Part shown: positions 20,893 through 39,031 of the stretch, in pieces | How positions within the stretch are numbered: the stretch's first letter is position 1 | How the letters are laid out: the number at the start of each line of letters is the position of its first letter | Assembly: GCA_016187515.1 (NCBI GenBank) | Contig: JACPJN010000007.1 | Coordinates: forward strand, 228,778-292,777 | Direction: 5' to 3' | Length of the DNA: 64,000 bases | Source: Candidatus Uhrbacteria bacterium | GTDB lineage: Bacteria; Patescibacteriota; Patescibacteriia; GWA2-47-26 | Notes under the pieces: generated by a model | The model's input: the letters and a program-made list of their open reading frames with translations, nothing else | Told to the model about the DNA's origin: nothing | Databases searched by the model: none | Translations under genes and position numbers: made by a program

Positions 20893-21849
<957 letters not shown>

Positions 21850-27080: not shown

Positions 27081-27170
27081 TTGGTGAGTTATTTAGTTAT
27101 TGGGTTATTAGTTATTAGTTATTAGTTATTTCTGCGCCAATTTTAATAACTTAATCACTTAATAACTTAA
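27081..27170. repeat. palindromic tandem heptamer element (GTTATTA)n / (AATAACTTAATCACTT)n
   Basis: GTTATTGGGTTATTAGTTATTAGTTATTAGTTATTtctgcgccaattttAATAACTTAATCACTTAATAACTTAATCACT, between ymdB stop and hup start. Confidence 0.8.
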
Positions 27171-28001
27171 TCACTCGATCACGATTTGCTCATCAATTCT
27201 TTTTATCGACTTTGCTAATTTAGTGGTTTCATTAATCTCCACCAGCACCGCGCTGATTTGACACAACCCGGTTTCCACTGGCGTGTGCTTGAATGGCTGT
27301 TGCAGTAGGAATGAGCGGATAATCCCATTTTTTTCTTCACCTAAAATTGAATCCACGGCTTGCACTCCGCCCACTTCGGTTACATACGCGGTGCCGCTGG
27401 GCAAAATGCGGGTGTCCGTCGTGCCCATCGAGGTATGCGTGCCCAGCACGGCGGAAACCCGGCCATCAGCGTAATTGCCCAAAGCATTAGCTTCGGAAGT
27501 GGCTTCACAGTGAAAGTCCACCAGAATGCCATTCAATTCTCCCCCTCTTAGGTTAAGAGGGGGCGGGGGGGAGTTATGATACCTCGCCAAAATCTCATCC
27601 AGCTTCCGAAATGGATCATCATACTGCGACTGAAAAAACACCCGGCCCATTAAGTTTACCACCAGCAGCCGAATTTTTCCATCTTTGCTTTCCACTACCA
27701 TATCGCCGCGTCCCGGCAAACCCGGCGGAAAATTGGCTGGCCGCACCAGCGGTAAATCTCCGCGAGCCATCAGCTTGGCCCCTTCGGCCTTAAACGAATG
27801 GTTGCCGCCCGTTACGCAATCCACTCCGGCATCCAAAAGTTCGCGCACGGTTTTTTCAGTCATGCCTACGCCATGCGCCAGATTTTCTCCATTGCCAATT
27901 ACAAAATCCGGCTTGTATTTCTTGCGCCAGCGCGGCAAGACCTCGGCCACGGCCCGCCGCCCGATTTTTCCGAAGATGTCGCCGATGAATATGATGCGCA
28001 T
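27171..28001 (-). CDS. ymdB: YmdB-family metallophosphoesterase (2',3'-cyclic-nucleotide phosphodiesterase) with in-frame palindromic insert
   Basis: 276 aa. MRIIFIGDIFGKIGRRAV...DFVIGNGENLAHGVG metallophosphatase motifs. Adjacent to rny. Inserted SPPPPLNLRGGE coincides with the element at 27541..27578. Confidence 0.8.
   Translation of the reverse strand: MRIIFIGDIFGKIGRRAVAEVLPRWRKKYKPDFVIGNGENLAHGVGMTEKTVRELLDAGVDCVTGGNHSFKAEGAKLMARGDLPLVRPANFPPGLPGRGDMVVESKDGKIRLLVVNLMGRVFFQSQYDDPFRKLDEILARYHNSPPPPLNLRGGELNGILVDFHCEATSEANALGNYADGRVSAVLGTHTSMGTTDTRILPSGTAYVTEVGGVQAVDSILGEEKNGIIRSFLLQQPFKHTPVETGLCQISAVLVEINETTKLAKSIKRIDEQIVIE
27541..27578. repeat. family P palindromic element (short copy) inserted in-frame in ymdB
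   Basis: CCCCCTCTTAGGTTAAGAGGGGGCGGGGGGGAGTTATGAT. Confidence 0.7.
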
Positions 28002-28244
28002 AAGTAAATAAGTTGTAAGTAGTAAGTAGTAAGTAGTGGTAAGTTACTTTTGAATTTTCTTCCAGCCATTGATTAGTTTAGCAGTTTCTTCTGTAACTTG
28101 GTACACCTCCAATGTCAATTCATGAGCTCTCTGCCATGCAATAATTTCACGAAATGTCTTGACCAATATAACTTACAACTTACTCACTTACTCACTTACT
28201 CACTTACTCACTTACTCACTTACTCACTTACTCACTTACTCACT
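28002..28244. repeat. palindromic tandem octamer element: (GTAAGTAG)n ... (CTTACTCA)x9
   Basis: 28003-28050 GTAAGTAGTAAGTAGTAAGTAGTGGTAAGTTAC and 28161-28244 TAACTTACAACTTACTCA(CTTACTCA)n. The two blocks are reverse complements. Spans the whole rny-ymdB intergenic region and generates spurious ORF 28098..28349. Confidence 0.8.
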
Positions 28245-29768
28245 TTAGCGCGCATACTCCACCACCCGCGTCTCCCGAATCACGTTAACCTTCACCTCGC
28301 CGGGATATTGCATCTCGGCTTCGATCCGTTTCGCCACATTTTTGGCTAACTCATAGGCCGACAGGTCGTCAATCTCCTGGGGCTTGACAAAGACCCGCAG
28401 CTCGCGGCCGGCCTGAATCGCGTAGGCATGTTCAACGCCGGGAAAGGCAGTGGCAATTTTTTCCAAATCCTCCAGGCGTTTGACATAGTCCTCGGCGGAT
28501 TCGCGCCGCGCGCCCGGCCTGGAACCGGAGATCGCGTCAGCCACTTTTACGATAATCCCTTCCAGCGTCTTCGGATTGTCTTCATGGTGGGCAATGGCCA
28601 TGTACGCGATATTTTCCGGAAAATTGAATTTCTTCATCAGCTCATAGCCCAAGTGCGTGTGCGCGCCTTTCATGTCCTGATCAATCGCTTTGCCGATATC
28701 ATGGAACAGTCCGCCTTTTTTACAAATGCTCACATCCGCGCCCAGCTCCTCGGCTAAAAGCGTGGCGAGATAGCCCACTTCGGTGGAATGCACTAGGACA
28801 TTTTGACCATAACTCGTGCGATATTTAAGGCGGCCCAGGATGGAGACCATCTTCGGATCAATTCCGGTAATCCCCATTTCATAAAGTACGTCGTCGCCGG
28901 CTTTACGAATGTCCAGCGCGAGTTCCTGGCGGGCTTCTTCCACTTTCTCTTCAATGCGCGCCGGATGAATCCGTCCATCCGCGATGAGTTTATCCAAAGC
29001 GCGCTTGGCCACTTGCCGGCGGATCGGCGAAAATCCGGAAACCGTCAAGGCATTCGGGGTCTCATCAATAATCACGTCAATTCCGGTCAACCGCTCCAGG
29101 GTCTTGATATTCCGGCCTTCTTTTCCAATAATGCGCCCTTTCATTTCATCGGAGGGCAGCGGCACGACGGTAGTGTTAATATCGGAGGCGTGGGAGGCCG
29201 CGATACGCTGGACCGCGGTGGCGACCATGGTCCGGGCTTGGCGATCCAGCTCTTCTTGAGTAGTCCCCTGCAGTTTGCGAATCCGGGTTATCAATTCTTC
29301 TTGGCTATCCTCTTCCACTTTCTTTAAAAGCTCGGCAACGGCTTGCTCGCGGGTCAGTCCGGCCACGGTTTGCAGCCGCTCGATCGCTTGCTGGCGCACT
29401 TGTTCGATCTGCGCTTTAACCCCCTCCACCTGCTTTAATTTTTCTTGCAGTTTTTCTTGCTTATCTTCAAGCTCCAGGAGTTTTTTATCAAACGTTCCCT
29501 CGCGGTCAACCAACCGCTGCTTCTCCACCCGCAACTCTTTGCGTACGGTCTCTTCTTCGGCCTTGGCTTTATCAATAATGACAATACTCTTCTCCCGGGC
29601 TTGAAGAAGAATCTCCTGCTCTTTGGACTTGGCCTCCGCGACGATTTTTTCGGCTTTGGCTTCGGCGCTATGCGCGAGCGTCGCGGCGCGGCTCTTGCGC
29701 AGATACCAGCCGATGGCGGCGCCGATGGCCAGCGCCCCGAGTGTCGAAAGAATGGTAATCAATGACAT
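28245..29768 (-). CDS. rny: ribonuclease Y
   Basis: ORF 28245..29804. Probable start MSLITILSTLGALAIG (N-terminal TM anchor) at 29768. Long coiled-coil, KH domain (GRIIGKEGRNIKTLE), HD domain (HSTEVGYLA...HDIGKA). Confidence 0.9.
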   Translation of the reverse strand: MSLITILSTLGALAIGAAIGWYLRKSRAATLAHSAEAKAEKIVAEAKSKEQEILLQAREKSIVIIDKAKAEEETVRKELRVEKQRLVDREGTFDKKLLELEDKQEKLQEKLKQVEGVKAQIEQVRQQAIERLQTVAGLTREQAVAELLKKVEEDSQEELITRIRKLQGTTQEELDRQARTMVATAVQRIAASHASDINTTVVPLPSDEMKGRIIGKEGRNIKTLERLTGIDVIIDETPNALTVSGFSPIRRQVAKRALDKLIADGRIHPARIEEKVEEARQELALDIRKAGDDVLYEMGITGIDPKMVSILGRLKYRTSYGQNVLVHSTEVGYLATLLAEELGADVSICKKGGLFHDIGKAIDQDMKGAHTHLGYELMKKFNFPENIAYMAIAHHEDNPKTLEGIIVKVADAISGSRPGARRESAEDYVKRLEDLEKIATAFPGVEHAYAIQAGRELRVFVKPQEIDDLSAYELAKNVAKRIEAEMQYPGEVKVNVIRETRVVEYAR

Positions 29769-29990: not shown

Positions 29991-30025
29991 TTGACAAGAG
30001 TTGAAAAATATGCTAGTATAAAGGG
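29991..30025 (+). promoter_or_regulatory. putative sigma70-type promoter and strong SD for the GC-islet gene
   Basis: cTTGACAagagttgaaaaatatgcTAGTATaaa, followed at 30071-30088 by gggagAAAGGAGctggcaATG. Confidence 0.35.
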
Positions 30026-30088
30026 TCCCTTGACAATGGGTTCCCATACCCAAAAACCCCCGTTATATACGGGAGAAAGGAGCTGGCA

Positions 30089-31222
30089 ATGGAAAAGTGC
30101 ATACACGGAATGCGACCCGAGTTTTGCGCTCGCTGCCGGCCCCAAGACCCCCAAAAGAGTCAGCCGGGCAGCAGCGAACCATCTCGCGCCAAGGCAGGGA
30201 CTCTTGATCAGCAATATCGCGAACTTCTAGCTGAACGCCGGCGCGCCCAAGTTGTGGTGCGCAAGGATGCGCGCGCGGCTCTGGAAACCGGATACGTGAG
30301 GATCTGTACTCAGGGAGGAGGACGCCGCCATCACAGCTTCAACGACCTCGACGTGCGCACTCGGGTTGTGCACATCAATGGCTACCCGTTTCTGTGGGCA
30401 ATCGAGCTGATCCTGGAGCGGGCTCCCAACGTGAGTCGGATCGAGGTCATCCCGAGCATGCTCGCTAAACTCCAAGCTATGCAGAGCAGCAGGGCGTTGG
30501 CACTGTGTCGCGAGCGCGCAGTTGAACTGGTGGCGGGTCACGACCGCCCGGACACGGCCTGGGAAGGCAAGGAAAACCGCTCGCCTACCTACGACAAGCA
30601 GCGCGCTTTCCTCGTCGGCCTCGCCGGGACACAAAAGGCGCGCTGGGAAGAGTTGCTCGCCATGGAGTTCGAGGCCGCGCAGCTCACCGCGCGCTACTTC
30701 TGTCTCCGCGGAGAAGAATACCGTTCGCAGAGGATCTTGGGTGAGGACTACGGGATCGCTCAAAGCATGGACCATATGGTCTCGATGCGGATTACCGCGA
30801 TCCTGTACTACCTTGATCCGTCGTTCAAGATCAGTGCGCGATCCAAGCAGTTCGCGGGAATGATGGAACGACGCGCCGCTCGTTTGCGGCCATTTCTCAC
30901 CGATGCAAGGTTGCGGGAAAAACTTGCCACGCAGCTGGGCATCCCTGCCCTTCCCTCTGGCTTGCCACTCAGCAGGCTAGAGGTCTACGACGCCCTGCTT
31001 CAGGCCCGCCAGGACGGGCGACTGGACCGGCTCGCCAAGGACCACGAGAACGCTCACTGCGCGCTTGCGTTGCGCTTTGGCCTGGACAAGCTTGATGCCC
31101 CGGCGTATCTCACTCTGGAGGCAGTTGGTCAGCTCATGGGTGAGGGAGGAGTCACGCGTGAGCGGATCCGTCAGCTCGAAGAACGGGCGCTGGAGCTTCT
31201 CGGAATCCAGGAAGACGAATAG
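30089..31222 (+). CDS. GC-rich ORFan with N-terminal Cys cluster and C-terminal sigma-70 region 4-like HTH
   Basis: 377 aa. N-terminus MEKCIHGMRPEFCARC. C-terminus YLTLEAVGQLMGEGGVTRERIRQLEERALELLG closely matches sigma-70 region 4.2 (LTLEEVG..VTRERIRQIE.KAL.KL). No sigma region 2 recognisable. GC much higher than neighbours. Confidence 0.6.
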   Translation: MEKCIHGMRPEFCARCRPQDPQKSQPGSSEPSRAKAGTLDQQYRELLAERRRAQVVVRKDARAALETGYVRICTQGGGRRHHSFNDLDVRTRVVHINGYPFLWAIELILERAPNVSRIEVIPSMLAKLQAMQSSRALALCRERAVELVAGHDRPDTAWEGKENRSPTYDKQRAFLVGLAGTQKARWEELLAMEFEAAQLTARYFCLRGEEYRSQRILGEDYGIAQSMDHMVSMRITAILYYLDPSFKISARSKQFAGMMERRAARLRPFLTDARLREKLATQLGIPALPSGLPLSRLEVYDALLQARQDGRLDRLAKDHENAHCALALRFGLDKLDAPAYLTLEAVGQLMGEGGVTRERIRQLEERALELLGIQEDE

Positions 31223-31299
31223 CACCCTCCCAATGTCCCGCCGGTCATAACGGCGGGAAAGACGCCCTTCATCCACTGAAGGACGCTGCGAAAAACGCA

Positions 31300-31331
31300 G
31301 AGCCCCACGGCAACGTCGGGGCTCGTTTTTT
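31300..31331. terminator. bidirectional rho-independent terminator
   Basis: GAGCCCCacggcaacgtcGGGGCTC followed by TTTTTT on plus strand. Lies between convergent genes ending at 31222 (+) and 31338 (-). Confidence 0.6.
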
Positions 31332-31337
31332 AAAAAT

Positions 31338-31937
31338 TTATGGCAATTGGGCTAGGATTTTGCGCTTGAGGCGGGAGAATTGATGAGCGTTAAGGTTGAG
31401 CTCGGGTACTTCTATTGTCTTTTGCAATAATTCGCGCAGACGCTCCGTGTGCGAGGTCAAATTGTGGGCCTTAACGAGCTTCGCGTATAAGCTCCAATCA
31501 ATGCCGGTATTAAGCAATCCGATAATGTCCACGCGATCTTTCTCACCTTTTAAACTATGCCCACGATCGTGCCAGGCATGTTGCTTGAGAATAAGTAAGA
31601 CGGCTTTTCGCGGCAGAGTAAATCCTTCCACCTGCGCAGTATGTTTCTGCACCGTCTCAATCGGGAGTCCCAGATCGGAAAAATACGGGACATAAACATC
31701 CACATCAATTTCTTCAAGATGAATCTCGTATTTCTTTAGTCGATCGTTTTTAAAAAGCTCGTGTTCTTTGCGTAAGCGTTCCAACTCGCCATACGCTACA
31801 ATCACATCAATATCTTTTGATTTCAATTGTTTGGTATATAAATATACTGCCCATCCGCCAATTAAAATAAATTGATGCTGACGTTTGAGGTCTTGAAGCA
31901 TCCTCCAGCTTTTTTCAGTAATGAGCTCATGATACAT
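31338..31937 (-). CDS. minimal nucleotidyltransferase-fold protein (candidate toxin)
   Basis: 199 aa. FILIGGWAVYLYTKQLKSKDIDVIV fits the hG[GS]-x(9-13)-DhD Pol-beta-type NTase motif. Immediately downstream (4 nt) of an HTH protein gene. Confidence 0.45.
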   Translation of the reverse strand: MYHELITEKSWRMLQDLKRQHQFILIGGWAVYLYTKQLKSKDIDVIVAYGELERLRKEHELFKNDRLKKYEIHLEEIDVDVYVPYFSDLGLPIETVQKHTAQVEGFTLPRKAVLLILKQHAWHDRGHSLKGEKDRVDIIGLLNTGIDWSLYAKLVKAHNLTSHTERLRELLQKTIEVPELNLNAHQFSRLKRKILAQLP

Positions 31938-31940
31938 ATC

Positions 31941-32582
31941 TCACAGTTTCATTTTTTCTTTTAGCGCTTCGAGAAATTCTTTGGCATACCAATGCGGGGT
32001 ATTCCAGATATCCACGAAGGTTTGCGCGTCGGACGTCAGGTGCGGCTCCGGCGCGCCCAGAGCATCGGGTTTTAAGACCACCAGATTTTCATAGCCCCTG
32101 GTTTTCGGAAAACGCGCTCTGATCGCGTCCACATCAGGGGCATACACATACACCACGTCATAATCCGCCGGCGCGTCCTTGTAGCGCAGGCGATAGGCGC
32201 TGAAGGCCGCAAAGATCGCGCCGGGAACCATCGCCCCCTCGATTTTTTGTACGGATGCGTCAACGTGGGTGGCATAAAGAATGTCGCGCTTGAGGTTACG
32301 CTGCGTTGCCCAAAGATAAAGCAGTTTTTCCGGATCACGCAGGCGAAAAAATCGTCCGGTTACCTCCACCGCGCCGATCTTGCGCGGGATATCCAGGGCG
32401 TGGTGTACGGTGCTCAAAGAAAACCGAAAGCGCCGCGCCAGCTCTTTTTGCGTAAAGGTTGGCAACTTTTTTGGGCTGGCCGTGTCCAAAATATGGCGCC
32501 AAATTAGCTCTTTTTTGGTCATACCCGGTTTCGATTTCTTTACCCTATTTATAGCTTCATTTCTATTATAATCGAAACTCAA
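31941..32582 (-). CDS. winged-HTH DNA-binding protein (candidate antitoxin/regulator partner of the NTase)
   Basis: 213 aa. N-terminal TQKELARRFRFSLSTVHHAL helix-turn-helix. Gene order HTH then NTase mirrors AbiEi-AbiEii modules. Confidence 0.4.
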   Translation of the reverse strand: MSFDYNRNEAINRVKKSKPGMTKKELIWRHILDTASPKKLPTFTQKELARRFRFSLSTVHHALDIPRKIGAVEVTGRFFRLRDPEKLLYLWATQRNLKRDILYATHVDASVQKIEGAMVPGAIFAAFSAYRLRYKDAPADYDVVYVYAPDVDAIRARFPKTRGYENLVVLKPDALGAPEPHLTSDAQTFVDIWNTPHWYAKEFLEALKEKMKL

Positions 32583-32614
32583 TTTTTTGTCAACCCTGAC
32601 CCATCAGAGCCTGT

Positions 32615-35600
32615 TTACGCGCTATTTTTGCTCTTGCGCGTGATAAGAAACCAAGCCGCGCGGGTTCCGGAGACAAAGAGTTTCCGCCGGCGCAGCGCGG
32701 CCGCGGCCGCCACCGCGCCTCCTCCGGCCGCCGTGGCGGTAGTATAGGGAGAGGGTTCGGCGGTTGATGCTCCGTCTTTTTCTGTCTCCGCGCCAGTTGC
32801 GCCCAACAATTCATCTTTACTCAAAATCTCAATATCTTCGGTAAACCTGGGCATGAGTTGATACCCGTTTTTGGTCTGTCCTAAAATACCCGTAACCGCG
32901 ACTCTAAATCCCGGGACAAGCTCGGTCATCTTAATATCGGTCGTATTCTTTACCGCCACATAAACTTCCCCGGCCGCATCCTCCAAAGTAAATCCGGAGT
33001 TTTTTATATCAATAATCGTGCCTTCCATCTTAATTAACGCGGCCTCGGTTTCCTCACCAACTTCATCGCTTAAAACCTGGCGCGGAATTGGCGCTTTTCC
33101 TTTCTTAATAAATCCAACGTCTTCCTTATCTTTAACGCGAATCCGATACTCGCCGCCGGCCTGACCCAGTACGCCTTGAACGGTAACCACATCGCCAATC
33201 TCAAGCGCCGGAAACGCTTTTTTGCTGGAATAAACCTGCAAACCTGATTCCCGGCTTTGCCGAGGATCCTCGGTAGTAAAGCTACCGGGACCGAATAAAT
33301 AAAAAATCTGCGCGCCGAGCATTCCGGGCGGCGCGGAAACCACTCCTTGCACGCGGACTTTTGTACCCAGCTCAAGATCACGCACTTCGGAAAGCGGTAC
33401 TTCCTGCGCGGCGTAAGACCCCTCCTCCGCTCCGCGCGGGAGAGGAGGGGGTGAGGACGATTCAATCACATTTTTCGCGCCCGGTGTTAACTTCCCGGTC
33501 CATCCCCACTGACCGTTTTGCGTCCGCGCGTAACTGTGTCCCTCACGCGCTTCTTCATACTCCACACTATCGATCAGCCGACCGACCGGATCAAACAAGC
33601 GCACCGCGTCCGTTGTATTGTTGAGCGTAAGCCGCGTTTTTGATTTGGGGAAAAGCGCGTAGCTGTGCGGCGCGGCTTTAACCGCCTCAATCGTATGGGC
33701 CGGACTCCCGCCTTCGATGTCATCCAGTTTAAATCCGGCCAGATCCAATTCTTCAGCGCCATCCCAAAACAGTTCAAGCCATTCTCCCTCATCAGATCCC
33801 TCCGGATCAGGAATAAATTCCGAGATGAAAAGTTTATCTCGCACATCAGAAATCCCCTCACCCCCACCCTCTCCCGCAGGGGGCGAGGGAGTACGATTGG
33901 CTTCCTCCCCCTTGATGGGGGAGGATTGAGGAGGGGGTGGTAATTTTGTGTTATCTGTGTCGATTTTCTGTGATTCTTCAATCACGTTTCCCTGCCCTTT
34001 CGTCACCTTCGCCGTTACCGCAAAATCCTTCTGATCATTAGCGGTGTCTTGCCCGTCTACCCGTCGGGCAACCGAATGGGGGTCTTGAGCGGCTGGCGCG
34101 TTATCCGAAGGTATGCCATCCTCCCACACGCCATAGGCCACGCGATCCACTACTGCGTTTTTATCATTTTTTAGCCGAATGATGTCGCCCTTGTTGTTGA
34201 GATTGCCTTTGATTGTCTCCACCACCAAAAACATTCCGGGAACAATGGTGCCTTGCAATTTGGTCTTACTTTCCGCGCCTTCTTCTAAAAACCAACCTTG
34301 AAGATCAACCGCGACCTCGCCGGAGTTAAAAAGTTCAACCCACTCCTCGCCGTCTTCCGGATCAGACACGAATTCGTTGATCACTATTTCCGCGGAAGGA
34401 ATGTTCGATGGCGCGGATACAACATCTGTGCCTCCGCGAGTAACGGTTTCAGTAATAACTTTGATTGCGGTAATGGTATTGGCCGAACCCTTGGTTGGGG
34501 TAGATGAAACCGCAAAATCGACGTTATCTATTCCAGTATCCGCGCCATTGCTTTTGCGCGCCACCGCGTGTCCGGGAGTATCGGGCGCCGGGGCATTGTC
34601 GGAAATGTTTCCATCGTTCCAATCGCCATAAGCGGCTTTATCGAGAAGCAACCCCGCGGCCGACTTCAGTTCAATAACGTCGCCGCTATTGTTGAGCCGC
34701 GCGGACGAAACTTCAAAAACCAAAAAGCCGCGCGCCGAAATTGTGCCCGTAAGCGATTTTATGGAATTGCCGGTGCCGTCATAAATTCTCCACCCGGCCA
34801 AATCAATCGGGAGATTAGTATTGTTGTAAAGTTCAATCCACTCCACGCTGTCGGTCGGATTGGGAACAAACTCATTGATAACCACCTCTCCCGCGCCAAC
34901 CACCCCTTCCTCCCCTCCTGCCAAAGGAGGGGGAAGCGGATCGTTTTCCTCCCCTGCCGGAGGAGGGTCGCCTTCCTCGCTTTCTCCCCCTTCTGAAGGG
35001 GGAGATTCAGAGGGGGTCCCAAGCTCCGGCCGTACCGCACTTACGCTATTTCGCGGATCCGCGCTTGCCCGTAACACAAAATCCGCGACATTGTTATTGG
35101 TATCCGCGCCGTTACCTTCCGCGCCGCCCGGAAGACGCTCAATACTTTCGCCCGCGCCCGGATTTGCCGCGAAAACTGTCCCTTCCACAAAAGCGTTTGC
35201 CGCCGTACCCCAGCCGACCGCGTCAATGATCTCGCCGGTATTTTCCGGGCCGCGGCGAAGGGCGATCCCGTTGTCCGGAGCAATCGTGCCTACGGTGGTT
35301 TCATCCGGCGTAACCGCGATAGCCGTAAACCCGCTATTGGCCCAAAGATAATAGCCGTGGGATGGCACTAGCGCCGCTTCGGTCCAGGATTTCAGAGTAG
35401 TGTCGCTGGTGCCCGTGGCGGTTCGCTTCACCAGCCGTATCCCATTCAAATCTACGGCCGCGGCCGTGGGATTGTAAAGCTCCACAAAATCATTCGTAGT
35501 TTTTCCCGCCCCGCCGGTGATCTGCACTTGGGAAATTAGCAGTCCGGTACCATGCGCGGCCGAGGCAAGGTTCCCCAAATAAAAAAATCCCCCCACTACT

Positions 35601-35635
35601 ACTAAAAATATAGAAATCCTTCGGTAAAACACCAT
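32615..35635 (-). CDS. large cell-surface protein with four lamin-tail domains (LTD) and repeat-element-derived P/G/E-rich linkers
   Basis: ORF 32615..35788; probable start MVFYRRISIFLVVVGGFFYLGNLASA (signal/TM) at 35635, because the longer ORF would run through tRNA-Leu. Four repeats of the LTD pattern, e.g. INEFVPNPTDSVEWIELYNNTNLPIDLAGWRIYDG. Linkers PPSEGGESEEGDPPPAGEENDPLPPPLAGGEEG coincide with GC palindromic elements. Confidence 0.7.
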   Translation of the reverse strand: MVFYRRISIFLVVVGGFFYLGNLASAAHGTGLLISQVQITGGAGKTTNDFVELYNPTAAAVDLNGIRLVKRTATGTSDTTLKSWTEAALVPSHGYYLWANSGFTAIAVTPDETTVGTIAPDNGIALRRGPENTGEIIDAVGWGTAANAFVEGTVFAANPGAGESIERLPGGAEGNGADTNNNVADFVLRASADPRNSVSAVRPELGTPSESPPSEGGESEEGDPPPAGEENDPLPPPLAGGEEGVVGAGEVVINEFVPNPTDSVEWIELYNNTNLPIDLAGWRIYDGTGNSIKSLTGTISARGFLVFEVSSARLNNSGDVIELKSAAGLLLDKAAYGDWNDGNISDNAPAPDTPGHAVARKSNGADTGIDNVDFAVSSTPTKGSANTITAIKVITETVTRGGTDVVSAPSNIPSAEIVINEFVSDPEDGEEWVELFNSGEVAVDLQGWFLEEGAESKTKLQGTIVPGMFLVVETIKGNLNNKGDIIRLKNDKNAVVDRVAYGVWEDGIPSDNAPAAQDPHSVARRVDGQDTANDQKDFAVTAKVTKGQGNVIEESQKIDTDNTKLPPPPQSSPIKGEEANRTPSPPAGEGGGEGISDVRDKLFISEFIPDPEGSDEGEWLELFWDGAEELDLAGFKLDDIEGGSPAHTIEAVKAAPHSYALFPKSKTRLTLNNTTDAVRLFDPVGRLIDSVEYEEAREGHSYARTQNGQWGWTGKLTPGAKNVIESSSPPPLPRGAEEGSYAAQEVPLSEVRDLELGTKVRVQGVVSAPPGMLGAQIFYLFGPGSFTTEDPRQSRESGLQVYSSKKAFPALEIGDVVTVQGVLGQAGGEYRIRVKDKEDVGFIKKGKAPIPRQVLSDEVGEETEAALIKMEGTIIDIKNSGFTLEDAAGEVYVAVKNTTDIKMTELVPGFRVAVTGILGQTKNGYQLMPRFTEDIEILSKDELLGATGAETEKDGASTAEPSPYTTATAAGGGAVAAAAALRRRKLFVSGTRAAWFLITRKSKNSA
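33420..33460. repeat. family P-like palindrome inside LTD surface protein gene
   Basis: CCTCCTCCGCTCCGCGCGGGAGAGGAGGGGGTGAGGACGATTC. Encodes SSPPPLPRGAEEG. Confidence 0.55.
33853..33945. repeat. family P palindromic element inside LTD surface protein gene
   Basis: ...CTCCCCCTTGATGGGGGAGGATTGAGGAGGGGGTGG; the GATTGAGG tail is shared with the ugd copy. Confidence 0.7.
34902..35017. repeat. family P palindromic element (composite) inside LTD surface protein gene
   Basis: ...CCCCTTCTGAAGGGGGAGATTCAGAGGGGGTCCC; the AGATTCAGAGGGGGTCC tail is identical to the ahcY copy. Confidence 0.75.
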
Positions 35636-35728
35636 GGTATTGAAAAACTTTCGGTATTCTGCTATATTATAACATACGCGCCGCGGTGGTGAAATGGCAA
35701 ATTTACCCCGTAAGCTCTTGCCCAGATG

Positions 35729-35750
35729 GCGGAACTGGAATACACAGCCC
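35729..35750 (+). other. degenerate partial copy of tRNA-Leu 5' end
   Basis: GCCCAGATGGCGGAACTGGA versus tRNA 5' GCCGAGATGGCGGAATTGGC, 17/20 identical, lying about 30 nt upstream of the intact tRNA. Confidence 0.5.
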
Positions 35751-35760
35751 TCCAAAATTT

Positions 35761-35844
35761 GCCGAGATGGCGGAATTGGCAGACGCACTGGGTTTAGGAC
35801 CCAGCGATCGCAAGATCATGGGAGTTCAAATCTCCCTCTCGGCA
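35761..35844 (+). tRNA. tRNA-Leu (anticodon TAG)
   Basis: GCCGAGATGGCGGAATTGGCAGACGCACTGGGTTTAGGACCCAGCGATCGCAAGATCATGGGAGTTCAAATCTCCCTCTCGGCA. 7-bp acceptor stem, anticodon loop TTTAGGA, long variable arm, T-arm GGAGTTCAAATCTCC. No encoded CCA. Confidence 0.85.
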
Positions 35845-35910
35845 AATTTAGGCGGGCCAATATAACTTAAACAAACTTAATCTTGACAATCCCGGCTCCG
35901 GATGGTAGGT

Positions 35911-36120
35911 TTAAGGGGACTGTTGCGCAGTGCGCTTTCGTAGCGAAAGGTAAGAATTTCGAGCGAGCCGAAGCAAAAATTATGAAGCATATACGGAGTA
36001 TCTGTTGAGTAATTTTTGCAAAGGCGCAGCCGAAATTCTTACCTTGCAGTAGAAATTTGCAAAGGCGCAGCCGAAATTCTTACCTTGCAGTAGAAATGGC
36101 ACTGCGCAACAGTCCCCTAA
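35911..36120. mobile_element. MITE-like structured element: 19-bp perfect terminal inverted repeats (GGGGACTGTTGCGCAGTGC) enclosing two tandem 42-bp hairpin units
   Basis: TIRs at 35911-35929 and 36099-36120. Internal direct repeat TTGCAAAGGCGCAGCCGAAATTCTTACCTTGCAGTAGAAAT x2 (about 36011-36097); each unit is itself a hairpin. A third solo copy of TTTAAGGGACTGTTGCGCAGTGC lies at 40880-40903. Confidence 0.55.
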
Positions 36121-36737: not shown

Positions 36738-37238
36738 ATGACTCGCTTCACTCTTAAGAATGAACAACAAACTCTTGCGCTGGCCCGCCGCCTTGCCCGT
36801 ACGCTCCGCGGCGGGGACGTCTTGTTATTGCAAGGCGAGCTTGGCGCGGGCAAAACCACTTTTGTCCGCGGCTTGGCCCGCGCGCTTGGCGTGCGCAGCC
36901 GCATCAAAAGCCCGACTTTTACGCTAATACATGTGCATGAATTGGCTAAGGGCAAAGAGCATAGGGCTAAGGGCACTTTGCACAAAACTCTAAGCTCTAA
37001 GCTCTACGCTCTACGCTACCTCGTGCATTGCGATGCTTATCGGATAAAGCGCGCGCGCGAATTACGCGATGCGGGCCTCATGGACTGGCTTGGCCGACCC
37101 GACACGCTCGTGGTCGTAGAGTGGGGAGAAAAAATAAAACCGCTTCTTAAGGGGCGGCGATATATCCTGATCAAATTTGAGCATGGAGAACAAGGGAACC
37201 AGAGAATCATCAAAATGATGGCCTCTCTGCAGAGTTAG
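36738..37238 (+). CDS. tsaE: tRNA threonylcarbamoyladenosine biosynthesis protein TsaE (YjeE P-loop ATPase) with in-frame tandem-repeat insertion
   Basis: 166 aa. [22 protein letters not shown] Walker A and SPTFTL block. About 25 extra residues ([25 protein letters not shown]) encoded by tandem DNA repeats at 36941-37020 (gctaagggca / ctctaagctctacgct). Confidence 0.8.
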
Positions 37239-37294
37239 TTGACAGGTGCCTCTCGTTATGCTACAGTGGTATCGATCGCGGCACAGATGCCGTA

Positions 37295-39031
37295 TTGATC
37301 ACAACCCTGGTTTTCGAAGAAAGGAATGGTGCTAAAATGGCATTCATTGCCCCGAAGTTCCGACGTGAATCGTGGTACGGGCGACTGTACCTGCGCGCGT
37401 ACGGCGAGGATCGCGGGTGGCTCGTCCGCCTCAAGCTGGCGGGCTCGATCGGGTTCGACTACGCGCCGTGCCCGGAGTTCCCCGCCGATGTCCCCGAGGC
37501 CGAGCGCATCGGTGCGGCCGTTGACTGGCGCAGGCGGAGCGACGAAGCACATCAGCGCTCGCTCGCGTTCCTCATGATGCCGCCAGCGGTCCAGCCGTTC
37601 GTCGAGACGGGCCCGAAGGTTTCGATCTGTCCGACGTTCTGGAAGATCGTGTTCGCGATGCTCGTGTACTGTCCGATCGTCGCGCTGCGCGCGATGAGAC
37701 GGGCGATCCGCGATGCGGCGCGGGCGGCGCTCGCGGCGATCGCCTCCGCGTTCCGGTGGACCGGCCGTCGGTTCGGTCGGCCGCTCGCGTGGATGACCGC
37801 CGGCGCGTTCGTACTTGCCAGCTACGGCATGGGCGTCTACATGATCGCAGCGGTGTCGTACGGCGTGACCGGCTATCTCATGGGTCGTGCCGGCATCAGT
37901 CCGGAGGAAGCGCTGCTGCAAGTGGTGGAGGCGCAGACGCGTGCCGAACGCGAGCAGCTTCGCCAGGACTACCTCAAGGAGTGCGCCGCGAGCATCCGAG
38001 CCGAAGCGGAGAGGACCGTTGAGTCCTACCCGGAGTGCGATACGTTCGTTCTCATTGGCGGGATGTCGCACGAAGAGCAGGCGAAGCGGTGCGTCGGCCG
38101 CGACGAGCGGTATCTCTCCGAGATCAAGGCAGTCGAGGGCGGCGACCACGACTGCGTGGTGCAGGAGATGTATGGTTGGAGAGGTCTTGTCTTCGCGCGT
38201 CTGTTCCCCGGTGAGGCCGAACGAAAGGAGCTCGCAACATGGCTCGCGGCAAAGCTCCGCGAGCGGTTCGCGAAGGAGGTGCAGGCCGGTCTCGACTCGC
38301 GCGAGCGGCGGATCGCCGAGGCGCGCAAGGAGGACGCGAAGGTCGTCGGCGCCGCGGTCGCGAAGCTCGTCCCGATGCAGCATGATCCTCGCAAGCTCTA
38401 CGAGCAGTTCACGGCCAACTGTCGGTACGAGGAGTACGACAAGCGGTGGGTCGCGAGGTATGGGCACGGTGTCGTCTCGAACGCGACCTGTGCGACGCTC
38501 GCCGGACTGTTCGGCCCGCAGATCGAGGACGCGCAGTTCACGATCCGGTGGCAGGAGAGGAGAACAGCGCTCCGACAGTACGGGCCGGGCGTCGGGAAGG
38601 GGATCGGGTTCGTGGTCGGTGTCGTGTTCCTTCTCGCACTGCTCGTCGTGCTCCTGGACAGGTACATCCGCGCAATCGGTCGCGCGCTCGCGTGGTTTTT
38701 AGACAGGATTGTCTGGCCAGTCGGCAAATGGACCGTGATCATCGCGACCGCGCCGATCTGGATGCCGGTGCGGTACCTCGTCTGGCCGGCGCTCTGTCTG
38801 GTCGGGCGGAGTTTCCGGTCCGTCGGGCTCGCGTTCGGGCTCGCGTTCTGGAACGTCTGGCTCGTACGCACGGTTCGCTCCGCGTTCGTCTCCGTGTTCA
38901 CCGGCATCGCCTCCGGCATCCGCCGGTTCGCTGCCGCGACGCGGCAGGTCCTCGCGGACACCTGGCACCTCATCCGCGCCTTCGCGTCCGCGAAGTGGGA
39001 ACGCCTCTGCCCGTTCATCGAGTGGTCGTAA
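37295..39031 (+). CDS. GC-rich hypothetical polytopic membrane protein
   Basis: 578 aa; start possibly MAFIAPKF at 37337. Multiple hydrophobic helices at both ends and a central soluble Cys-containing domain. Local GC very high, so several long antisense ORFs appear (37256..38467- and others). Confidence 0.5.
   Translation: MITTLVFEERNGAKMAFIAPKFRRESWYGRLYLRAYGEDRGWLVRLKLAGSIGFDYAPCPEFPADVPEAERIGAAVDWRRRSDEAHQRSLAFLMMPPAVQPFVETGPKVSICPTFWKIVFAMLVYCPIVALRAMRRAIRDAARAALAAIASAFRWTGRRFGRPLAWMTAGAFVLASYGMGVYMIAAVSYGVTGYLMGRAGISPEEALLQVVEAQTRAEREQLRQDYLKECAASIRAEAERTVESYPECDTFVLIGGMSHEEQAKRCVGRDERYLSEIKAVEGGDHDCVVQEMYGWRGLVFARLFPGEAERKELATWLAAKLRERFAKEVQAGLDSRERRIAEARKEDAKVVGAAVAKLVPMQHDPRKLYEQFTANCRYEEYDKRWVARYGHGVVSNATCATLAGLFGPQIEDAQFTIRWQERRTALRQYGPGVGKGIGFVVGVVFLLALLVVLLDRYIRAIGRALAWFLDRIVWPVGKWTVIIATAPIWMPVRYLVWPALCLVGRSFRSVGLAFGLAFWNVWLVRTVRSAFVSVFTGIASGIRRFAAATRQVLADTWHLIRAFASAKWERLCPFIEWS

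Follow-up and report, generated by a model that had tools for sequence, protein, structure and literature searches.

A predicted sigma region 4 protein and a predicted AbiE/MenAT-type gene pair as convergent neighbours in a Candidatus Uhrbacteria genome

The window analyzed here is a 64,000-nucleotide (nt) stretch of a Candidatus Uhrbacteria genome (assembly GCA_016187515.1, contig JACPJN010000007.1, positions 228,778 to 292,777 of the forward strand). Within it we investigated three adjacent genes: one encodes a 377-amino-acid (aa) protein that ends in a sigma-70 region 4 domain, and facing it tail to tail is a pair of genes for a winged helix-turn-helix (wHTH) protein and a 199-aa minimal nucleotidyltransferase (NTase). 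Our overall reading, to which we assign about an even chance, is that these genes form two independent units, a region 4 DNA-binding regulator and a module of the AbiE/MenAT type, which have only the terminator region in common. A preliminary description of the locus, made from the sequence without database searches, had placed the three open reading frames (ORFs) at the positions that we find (Table 1), and had joined them into a single regulatory and defence module.

Linkage of the two units

The distribution of the genes in other genomes speaks against a single module. A sigma-like gene was found within 4 kb of the pair in none of the 83 pair loci, the one weak match being to an ordinary sigma region 4. 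Conversely, neither the pair nor any other common neighbour was present at any of six independent loci of the sigma-like gene, a count from which we left out L097, a 4-kb contig that carries the window genes in identical form. The genes also differ in base composition: the sigma-4-like gene has a GC content of 61%, the NTase gene of 43%, and the wHTH gene of 54%, in a window of 51%, and the earlier remark that the first of these is GC-rich holds. Because linkage is absent on both sides and the GC contents differ, we conclude that the sigma-like gene and the pair are unrelated convergent neighbours whose common terminator region is an accident of position. That they adjoin is a coincidence, annotation should keep the three genes apart, and the joint module of the preliminary description finds no support.

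The nucleotidyltransferase and its winged-HTH partner

From its sequences, the pair appears to be a Patescibacteria-wide two-gene module and a new member of the AbiE/MenAT kind. The wHTH gene lies directly 5' of the NTase gene, separated by a gap of a few nucleotides, in all 83 loci, which bears out the AbiEi-AbiEii-type gene order that had been pointed out for the window. These two genes are the only ones common to the 80 loci that we compared; the genes next to them vary and often belong to sugar metabolism. An identical copy of the 199-aa protein is deposited as a hypothetical protein from a Candidatus Uhrbacteria bacterium. The family of the 199-aa protein is very large in the Patescibacteria, with over 1550 clusters (90% identity); the pair was matched in 371 species-representative genomes, and distant members of the NTase family are still 53-60% identical to the window copy. 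The two genes, always linked, differ markedly from each other in composition in this genome (54% GC and 62% GC at third codon positions, GC3, in the wHTH gene vs 43% GC and 46% GC3 in the NTase gene). The pair also occurs in records that are not labelled as Patescibacteria, namely L042 (OY969767.1, a 2.7-Mb chromosome, Elusimicrobia), L053 (a metagenome-assembled genome, MAG, of Bathyarchaeia) and several MAGs labelled Gammaproteobacteria; these are either binning or labelling errors or cases of true lateral transfer.

The 199-aa protein carries the hGG-x13-DID motif (GG-x13-DID in the window copy) for which it had first been singled out. The residues that are invariant in 37 sequences (G27, G28, S40, D42, D44, D80, K118, R125, D134, and D137) fit the four conserved motifs described for DUF1814 (PMC7450476): hGG..DxD as motif I, an acidic residue as motif II, K..R as motif III, and DxxD, here D134 and D137, as motif IV. 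This assignment was made by inspection, against that description and the residues of MenT1. The predicted model (predicted local distance difference test, pLDDT, 94.4) has MenT-family toxins throughout as its closest structures; in the structure comparison the MenT1 toxin of M. tuberculosis scores 15.6, TglT/MenT3 11.6, MenT4 10.8, and AbiEi 9.0. Judged by this model, the 199-aa protein has a pol-beta-type NTase fold of the MenT kind, in keeping with the assignment to the NTases first made. MenT toxins add nucleotides to the 3' ends of tRNAs and thereby block their charging (PMC7450476, PMC10435456). In MenT1, T39 of the T39-x-D41-x-D43 segment is the phospho-acceptor, and auto-phosphorylation silences the toxin (PMC11375011); the spacing of S40-x-D42-x-D44 in the 199-aa protein is the same. 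By analogy, the NTase would block translation through the addition of nucleotides to tRNA 3' ends, with toxicity and the tRNA substrate both carried over from the MenT toxins, and the wHTH partner would restrain it, possibly by way of a phosphorylation of Ser40 like that of the MenT1 threonine.

The partner begins with a wHTH domain: HTH_Crp_2 was matched N-terminally in 24 of 27 members, with a best E value of 6.6e-6. An hhalign comparison of the partner family with the NTase family aligned the S..DxD segment and was not significant (P 0.023). The preliminary description had the extent of the 213-aa ORF right and its start wrong. The protein almost certainly starts at M21 (ATG at 32522) and has 193 aa, because a perfect promoter (32593-32565) covers the TTG start of the longer frame, the homologues are about 195 aa long, and an independent gene call also gives 193 aa.

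The promoter of the pair overlaps a candidate operator. The -10 box lies within a near-palindrome, TTTCGAtTATAATaGAAA (TTTCGA-TATAAT-GAAA); one arm of the candidate operator, GTTTCGATT, abuts the -10 box (32578-32570), and the other, AATCGAAAC, ends just before the ATG (32536-32528). The motif is kept in 73 of 76 loci compared to 1% of shuffled sequences, and the arrangement spans the Microgenomates, Parcubacteria, Saccharibacteria, and Peregrinibacteria. The half-sites moreover co-vary, so that arms reading TTTCTA go with a distal site ATAGAAA, which is expected of an operator read by a co-evolving wHTH protein. AbiEi-type antitoxins repress their own promoters through inverted repeats (PMC7450476; also indicated by titles cited in PMC11375011), and the predicted arrangement fits autorepression in the AbiEi style: the 193-aa protein would repress the operon through the palindrome that encloses the -10 box, together with a third half-site located at the start codon. 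The candidate operator is conserved enough for the predicted binding site of the repressor to be defined from sequence alone.

Toxin-antitoxin module or housekeeping function

Several observations weigh against placing the pair with the AbiE and MenAT systems. The AbiEii profile PF08843 reaches only 16 bits vs a cut-off of 22.5 in the 199-aa protein, and among 37 relatives AbiEii is matched at E<=0.01 in 10 and DUF6036 weakly in 30, all below the curated cut-offs. The profile of the partner matches no AbiEi family in Pfam and no AbiEi chain in the PDB. In addition, across very distant lineages of the Patescibacteria the two proteins remain 45-60% identical and the operator persists; most toxin-antitoxin modules are less conserved than this, and the pair could have a housekeeping function.

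An alternative explanation, which we consider rather unlikely but give real weight, is that the pair serves a conserved, self-regulated housekeeping function, for example as an enzyme that modifies or repairs the 3' ends of tRNA or other RNA, together with its own repressor. The wide distribution of the pair and the identity that both proteins retain would suit such a function, as would a promoter and operator kept in nearly all loci; a housekeeping enzyme would sit less well with the variable genomic context, in which no third gene is conserved, and with closest structures that are all MenT-family toxins. Nor does similarity track taxonomy: a second copy from Uhrbacteria has 51% identity, whereas copies from Kerfeldbacteria and Peribacteria have 58-61%. 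Because similarity departs from taxonomy and the context is variable, the sequences suggest that the pair moves laterally, and we retain the AbiE/MenAT-type module as the preferred reading of the pair.

A sigma region 4 without a sigma core

Judged from its sequence and its family, the 377-aa protein is a stand-alone sigma region 4 protein and not a sigma factor on its own. The single sequence is matched by Sigma70_r4 of Pfam (aa 340-369, E 1.6e-5, 24.8 bits vs a cut-off of 24.1), as are 22 of 23 family members, and a profile of 23 relatives finds the domain 4 chains of primary sigma factors in the PDB at an E value of 1.9e-13. The best NCBIfam matches are all to primary sigma factors, and in them, as in the PDB alignments, region 4 is the only part aligned. 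The C-terminal region 4 with its -35 recognition helix, as first described, is thus confirmed. The TRERIRQ sequence of this helix is the same as in E. coli sigma-70 (residues 583-589) and in S. aureus sigma-A, and in structural work R584, E585, R588, and Q589 of sigma-70 touch the -35 hexamer. The domain is 44-47% identical to the region 4 of primary sigma factors, the LRFGL segment in region 4.1 included, and the TRERIRQ positions are retained in about 75-85% of 131 relatives.

What surrounds this domain is not a sigma factor. None of the 23 relatives is matched by Sigma70_r2 (at E<=0.1) or Sigma70_r3, and no region 2 similarity to sigma factors was found anywhere in the window. Region 2 is the part of a sigma factor that binds the core enzyme and recognizes and melts the -10 element, and it is because the family members lack it that we do not regard the protein as a sigma factor; the absence of regions 2 and 3 had been noticed at the outset, and an ordinary sigma factor with a recognizable region 2 is not what the profile searches returned. 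The chain also stops about 10 residues past the recognition helix, and the segment missing there is presumably the equivalent of residues 605-613 of sigma-70. The NCBIfam model NF041931 (MzaA, the sigma factor of the MZA system) gave 28.7 bits vs a cut-off of 800, with only positions 659-701 of 726 aligned.

The remaining domains and the family of the 377-aa protein

The architecture of the family comprises a CHCC zinc knuckle, a disordered linker, an alpha/beta domain, a helical helix-turn-helix (HTH) domain, two long helices, and region 4; the AlphaFold2 model of the window protein has a mean pLDDT of 84.9. The N-terminal cysteine cluster had been described with the spacing C-x9-C-x2-C. The cluster is real, but it reads C-x-H-x6-C-x2-C, with eight residues between C4 and C13, and all four ligands are present in 80 of the 81 relatives that cover this part; from this we infer zinc binding.

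In the alpha/beta domain the motifs VH-x-G-x-P-x-LW and GH-x-x-P-x-x-AW are near-invariant across the family. DUF1699 (PF08004) is matched by 7 of 23 members, at best with E 5.2e-6 and below the curated cut-off of 33.4; the best score among ten individually scanned fusion and outlier relatives is 29.1 bits vs the same cut-off. Precomputed matches to PF28505 (DUF1699_N) exist for 5 of the 23 members, some of them flagged weak or faint, and the Pfam scan of the window protein itself returned neither DUF1699 nor DUF1699_N. A profile of the alpha/beta domain alone retrieved one 111-aa DUF1699_N protein and no relative in the PDB. Our literature search for DUF1699 found only misprints of DUF1669/FAM83. 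A receiver domain was considered on account of low-score NarL/DevR and "response regulator" fold matches; we discarded this reading, since the residues that are conserved (H95, P122, G150, and H/Y151) do not correspond to the acidic pocket of receivers.

The middle HTH probably arose as a copy of sigma region 4 that has since degenerated, given that hhalign aligns it in register with the C-terminal region 4 (P 7e-5, probability 62%). Its profile has no significant match in the PDB, where only chance matches to UBA domains were returned.

The protein had been called an ORFan, a label that does not survive the searches. A word-indexed search found 23 clusters of relatives at 90% identity, and an exhaustive profile search found about 195 representatives at 50% identity (E<=1e-30), mostly of 300-380 aa and aligned over their full length. 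By these sequences the family is an uncharacterized one with members both in Patescibacteria and on phage-like contigs. A metagenome scan with the family alignment returned no full-length relative; ordinary sigma factors swamped its results, the generic TRERIRQLE being one of the search patterns.

Some relatives combine the module with other domains. Four long representatives (P0244, P0218, P0225, and P0238) carry an N-terminal sigma factor in place of the zinc knuckle; one of the four has regions 2, 3, and 4, whereas in the rest region 3 is matched weakly or in part, or sigma is not matched significantly. A DnaA_C-like HTH is also visible by eye in at least P0244 and P0218. In three further representatives (P0219, P0234, and P0229) DnaA domain IV (Bac_DnaA_C) is present at the C-terminus at E values of about 1e-19. 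A 223-aa version on a viral contig (L089, 7920-8591 of IMGVR_UViG_3300009285_001742) consists of the RYFCL HTH and region 4 without the alpha/beta domain, and its gene lies directly 3' of one for a Dam-like DNA methyltransferase. Because of the sigma and DnaA domain IV fusions, the sequences suggest that the module keeps company with promoter- and origin-binding domains.

The genomic contexts are diverse. The copies in the window and in L003 are single genes amid housekeeping genes. The region around the L002 copy is variable and includes genes for an AbiEii-like protein and for an AAA ATPase; the genes 5' of this homologue were considered as kin of the wHTH-NTase pair, which was ruled out on checking. 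Four copies are surrounded by phage-like gene sets: the L004 contig has genes for DNA polymerase A, a methyltransferase, thymidylate kinase, and dihydrofolate reductase, with a ParB-like gene next to the homologue; L088 is an IMG/VR contig of 162 kb; L094 carries an HNH gene as well as a radical SAM gene of phage type; and L096 carries numerous small ORFs together with a Cro-like HTH. An all-against-all ORF comparison of seven sigma-4-like loci found no neighbour common to them. PHROGs has no match for any of the three window proteins, the viral fold search in BFVD gave nothing at E<=1e-3, tblastn searches of GenBank phages and PLSDB plasmids gave no match, and PADLOC returned only chance-level matches (REase_II on a disordered stretch, and mad1).

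Possible functions of the 377-aa protein

We read the 377-aa family, from its domain composition, as a type of HTH regulator built from sigma region 4. Because the protein has a complete -35 reading head and a second HTH but no region 2, it would act as a free-standing, sequence-specific transcription regulator that uses a captured domain 4 of a primary sigma factor. The captured domain would read -35-like hexamers of the TTGACA type; the second HTH and the alpha/beta domain would provide a second DNA contact or dimerization; and the regulator could repress by occlusion or activate. Some points count against this reading. The regulator role, target hexamer included, is deduced from sequence; about a quarter of the 131 relatives differ at the recognition residues; the alpha/beta domain has no informative relative in structure or sequence; and the protein could, although this is unlikely, act on RNA polymerase itself. 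The window has a second TTGACA in the leader of the gene (30030-30035), 3' of the -10 box and 39 bp after the -35 hexamer of the promoter. Self-regulation through the two hexamers was considered and is ruled out as a family feature, as the homologues examined lack the second one, and this too weakens the case for the regulator.

In the action on RNA polymerase just mentioned, region 4 would replace that of the host sigma factor at the beta-flap tip. The protein would then be either the half of a split sigma that carries region 4 or a factor that appropriates or inhibits the host enzyme, retargeting or blocking it, as might happen when a phage infects the cell. Split sigma factors are represented by SigO with RsoA and by T4 gp33 with gp55. 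The domain is closer to the region 4 of primary sigma factors than to ordinary HTH regulators, which is in keeping with such docking, as are the relatives fused to a full sigma factor and those in phage-like contigs; on the other hand, nothing similar was found in PHROGs, BFVD, GenBank phages, or plasmids, and the chain ends before the C-terminal segment that presumably corresponds to sigma-70 605-613. As a split sigma of the SigO-RsoA type the protein fails: none of the seven loci has a partner gene with region 2 only, or any other conserved neighbour. We regard docking on RNA polymerase as unlikely. The AsiA-like, anti-sigma, and -35-competitor roles first put forward for the protein are speculative.

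A related possibility, to which we give a low probability, is that the 377-aa protein mimics the region 4 of the host sigma factor and either occupies the beta-flap or titrates factors that bind region 4, such as anti-sigma proteins, activators, or phage appropriators. If this were the case, the family would be a "sigma-4 surrogate or decoy" of Patescibacteria and phages that redirects or protects transcription, with the zinc knuckle and the DUF1699_N-like domain as its regulatory or anchoring part. Finally, the protein might serve a mobile element by binding DNA for replication or partition (as an accessory to a replication initiator, or as a centromere binder) and not act in transcription, a reading that we consider improbable. 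The DnaA domain IV of three representatives, the DnaA_C-like HTH of sigma-fused forms, and, on the L004 contig, the ParB-like gene and the genes for DNA polymerase A, thymidylate kinase, and dihydrofolate reductase speak for it. Against it, the window and L003 copies are single genes amid housekeeping genes, with no replication or partition genes near them, and no iterons (repeated binding sites) were seen beside the gene.

The reading of the 377-aa protein as a transcription regulator has consequences beyond this locus. Transcription control in the Patescibacteria (candidate phyla radiation) is nearly unexplored, and very few regulators are recognizable in them. A family common to these bacteria and phages that joins an intact -35 reading head to an uncharacterized alpha/beta domain offers a tractable entry point, because its DNA target would be predictable (TTGACA-like) and can be tested in vitro without culture of the host.

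Features of the locus

Table 1. Genes, protein domains and predicted regulatory sites at the locus. Positions are those of the window.
Feature	Position	Strand	Basis or remark
Promoter-like sequence 5' of the sigma-4-like gene, TTGACA-17-TAGTAT plus TG extension	29991-30019	+	10/12 matches
Shine-Dalgarno sequence AAAGGAG, 6 nt 5' of the ATG of the sigma-4-like gene	30076-30082	+	Read from sequence
Gene for the 377-aa sigma-4-like protein	30089-31222	+	ORF list; Patescibacteria/phage family
N-terminal CHCC zinc-knuckle motif (C4, H6, C13, C16)	30098-30136	+	80/81 relatives covering the region
Four-stranded alpha/beta domain (aa 68-165), DUF1699_N-like	30290-30583	+	H95 nearly invariant
Middle helical HTH (aa 176-246), motif RYFCLxGEE	30614-30826	+	hhalign vs the C-terminal domain
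Sigma-70 region 4 domain (aa 311-372)	31019-31204	+	Recognition helix TRERIRQ as in primary sigma factors
GC-rich hairpin (+ strand, GTTTTTT; - strand, TGCGTTTTTCG)	31300-31331	both	Probable terminator of both convergent units
Gene for the 199-aa MenT1-like minimal NTase, putative toxin	31338-31937	-	
Gene for the wHTH partner, putative antitoxin/repressor	31941-32522	-	193 aa from ATG 32522; ORF extends to 32582 (213 aa)
Candidate operator of the pair	32528-32578	-	9-nt inverted repeat, 100% complementary
Promoter of the pair, perfect TTGACA-17-TATAAT	32565-32593	-	12/12 matches

The promoter proposed for the 377-aa gene is present and has a TG extension. The convergent spacer of 115 nt folds into four hairpins (z -5.4), of which the last (31300-31324; second z value -3.7) has T-runs on both strands; as had been suggested, it is the probable terminator of both convergent units. 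Upstream of the 377-aa gene are the genes for RNase Y and a YmdB-like protein, and beyond the pair, at higher window positions, are the gene for a large repetitive protein and a tRNA-Leu. Because of its 61% GC in a window of 51%, the sigma-4-like gene, which has a promoter and a terminator of its own, appears to have been acquired as a single-gene insertion of foreign base composition. A tRNA as the site of insertion was considered and is not borne out; no tRNA adjoins the gene, and the only one lies at 35760.

The large repetitive protein is encoded by a 1057-aa ORF (32615-35788, - strand) whose GTG start overlaps the tRNA-Leu of the opposite strand. Its real start is probably further 3'; one candidate is the M of MVFYRRISIF, after which comes a hydrophobic segment, and the product looks secreted. 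The tRNA-Leu (35760-35845) is followed by a perfect direct repeat of two 41-nt units (36015-36097) and, at 37000-39000, by a GC-rich block (62-66% vs 51% for the window), which may be an element integrated at the tRNA-Leu. AT-rich tandem repeats with periods of 7-8 nt, perfect or near-perfect, occupy spacers at 28178-28245, 27087-27130, 27143-27175, 28009-28037, and 21130-21161; one example, (ACTTACTC) x 8.5, lies directly 3' of the RNase Y gene. They may be contingency repeats or spacer repeats typical of this genome.

Comparison with known systems

The SigO-RsoA system of Bacillus subtilis likewise includes a region 4 protein without a conventional region 2; however, SigO needs the adjoining RsoA gene for region 2, whereas the 377-aa family has no conserved neighbour. 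Closest in region 4 are the primary (group 1) sigma factors, such as S. aureus sigma-A (domain 4, PDB 4g6d) and Taq sigma-A (region 4, 1ku3 and 1ku7). Unlike them, the 377-aa protein lacks regions 1.2, 2, and 3 and the C-terminal tail after the recognition helix, and the rest of it consists of the zinc knuckle, the DUF1699_N-like alpha/beta domain, and the second, degenerate HTH. WhiA (PDB 3hyi and 8dy9) is alike in principle only, as a region 4-like HTH on a non-sigma scaffold. The profiles of the archaeal domains DUF1699 and DUF1699_N (PF08004 and PF28505) match, in some family members, roughly the initial 60 residues of the alpha/beta domain, with scores that stay under the curated cut-off.

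The known relatives of the pair are MenT1/MenA1, MenT3/MenA3, and AbiEii/AbiEi (PMC7450476, PMC10435456, PMC11375011). The 199-aa sequence remains below the Pfam thresholds for AbiEii and DUF6036, and the wHTH partner has no detectable sequence similarity to the AbiEi families. The partner also differs from the antitoxin of MenT1 itself, which is a 68-aa helix. Compared to the MenAT and AbiE systems, the pair stands out as a subfamily that is essentially confined to the Patescibacteria and unusually conserved among them.

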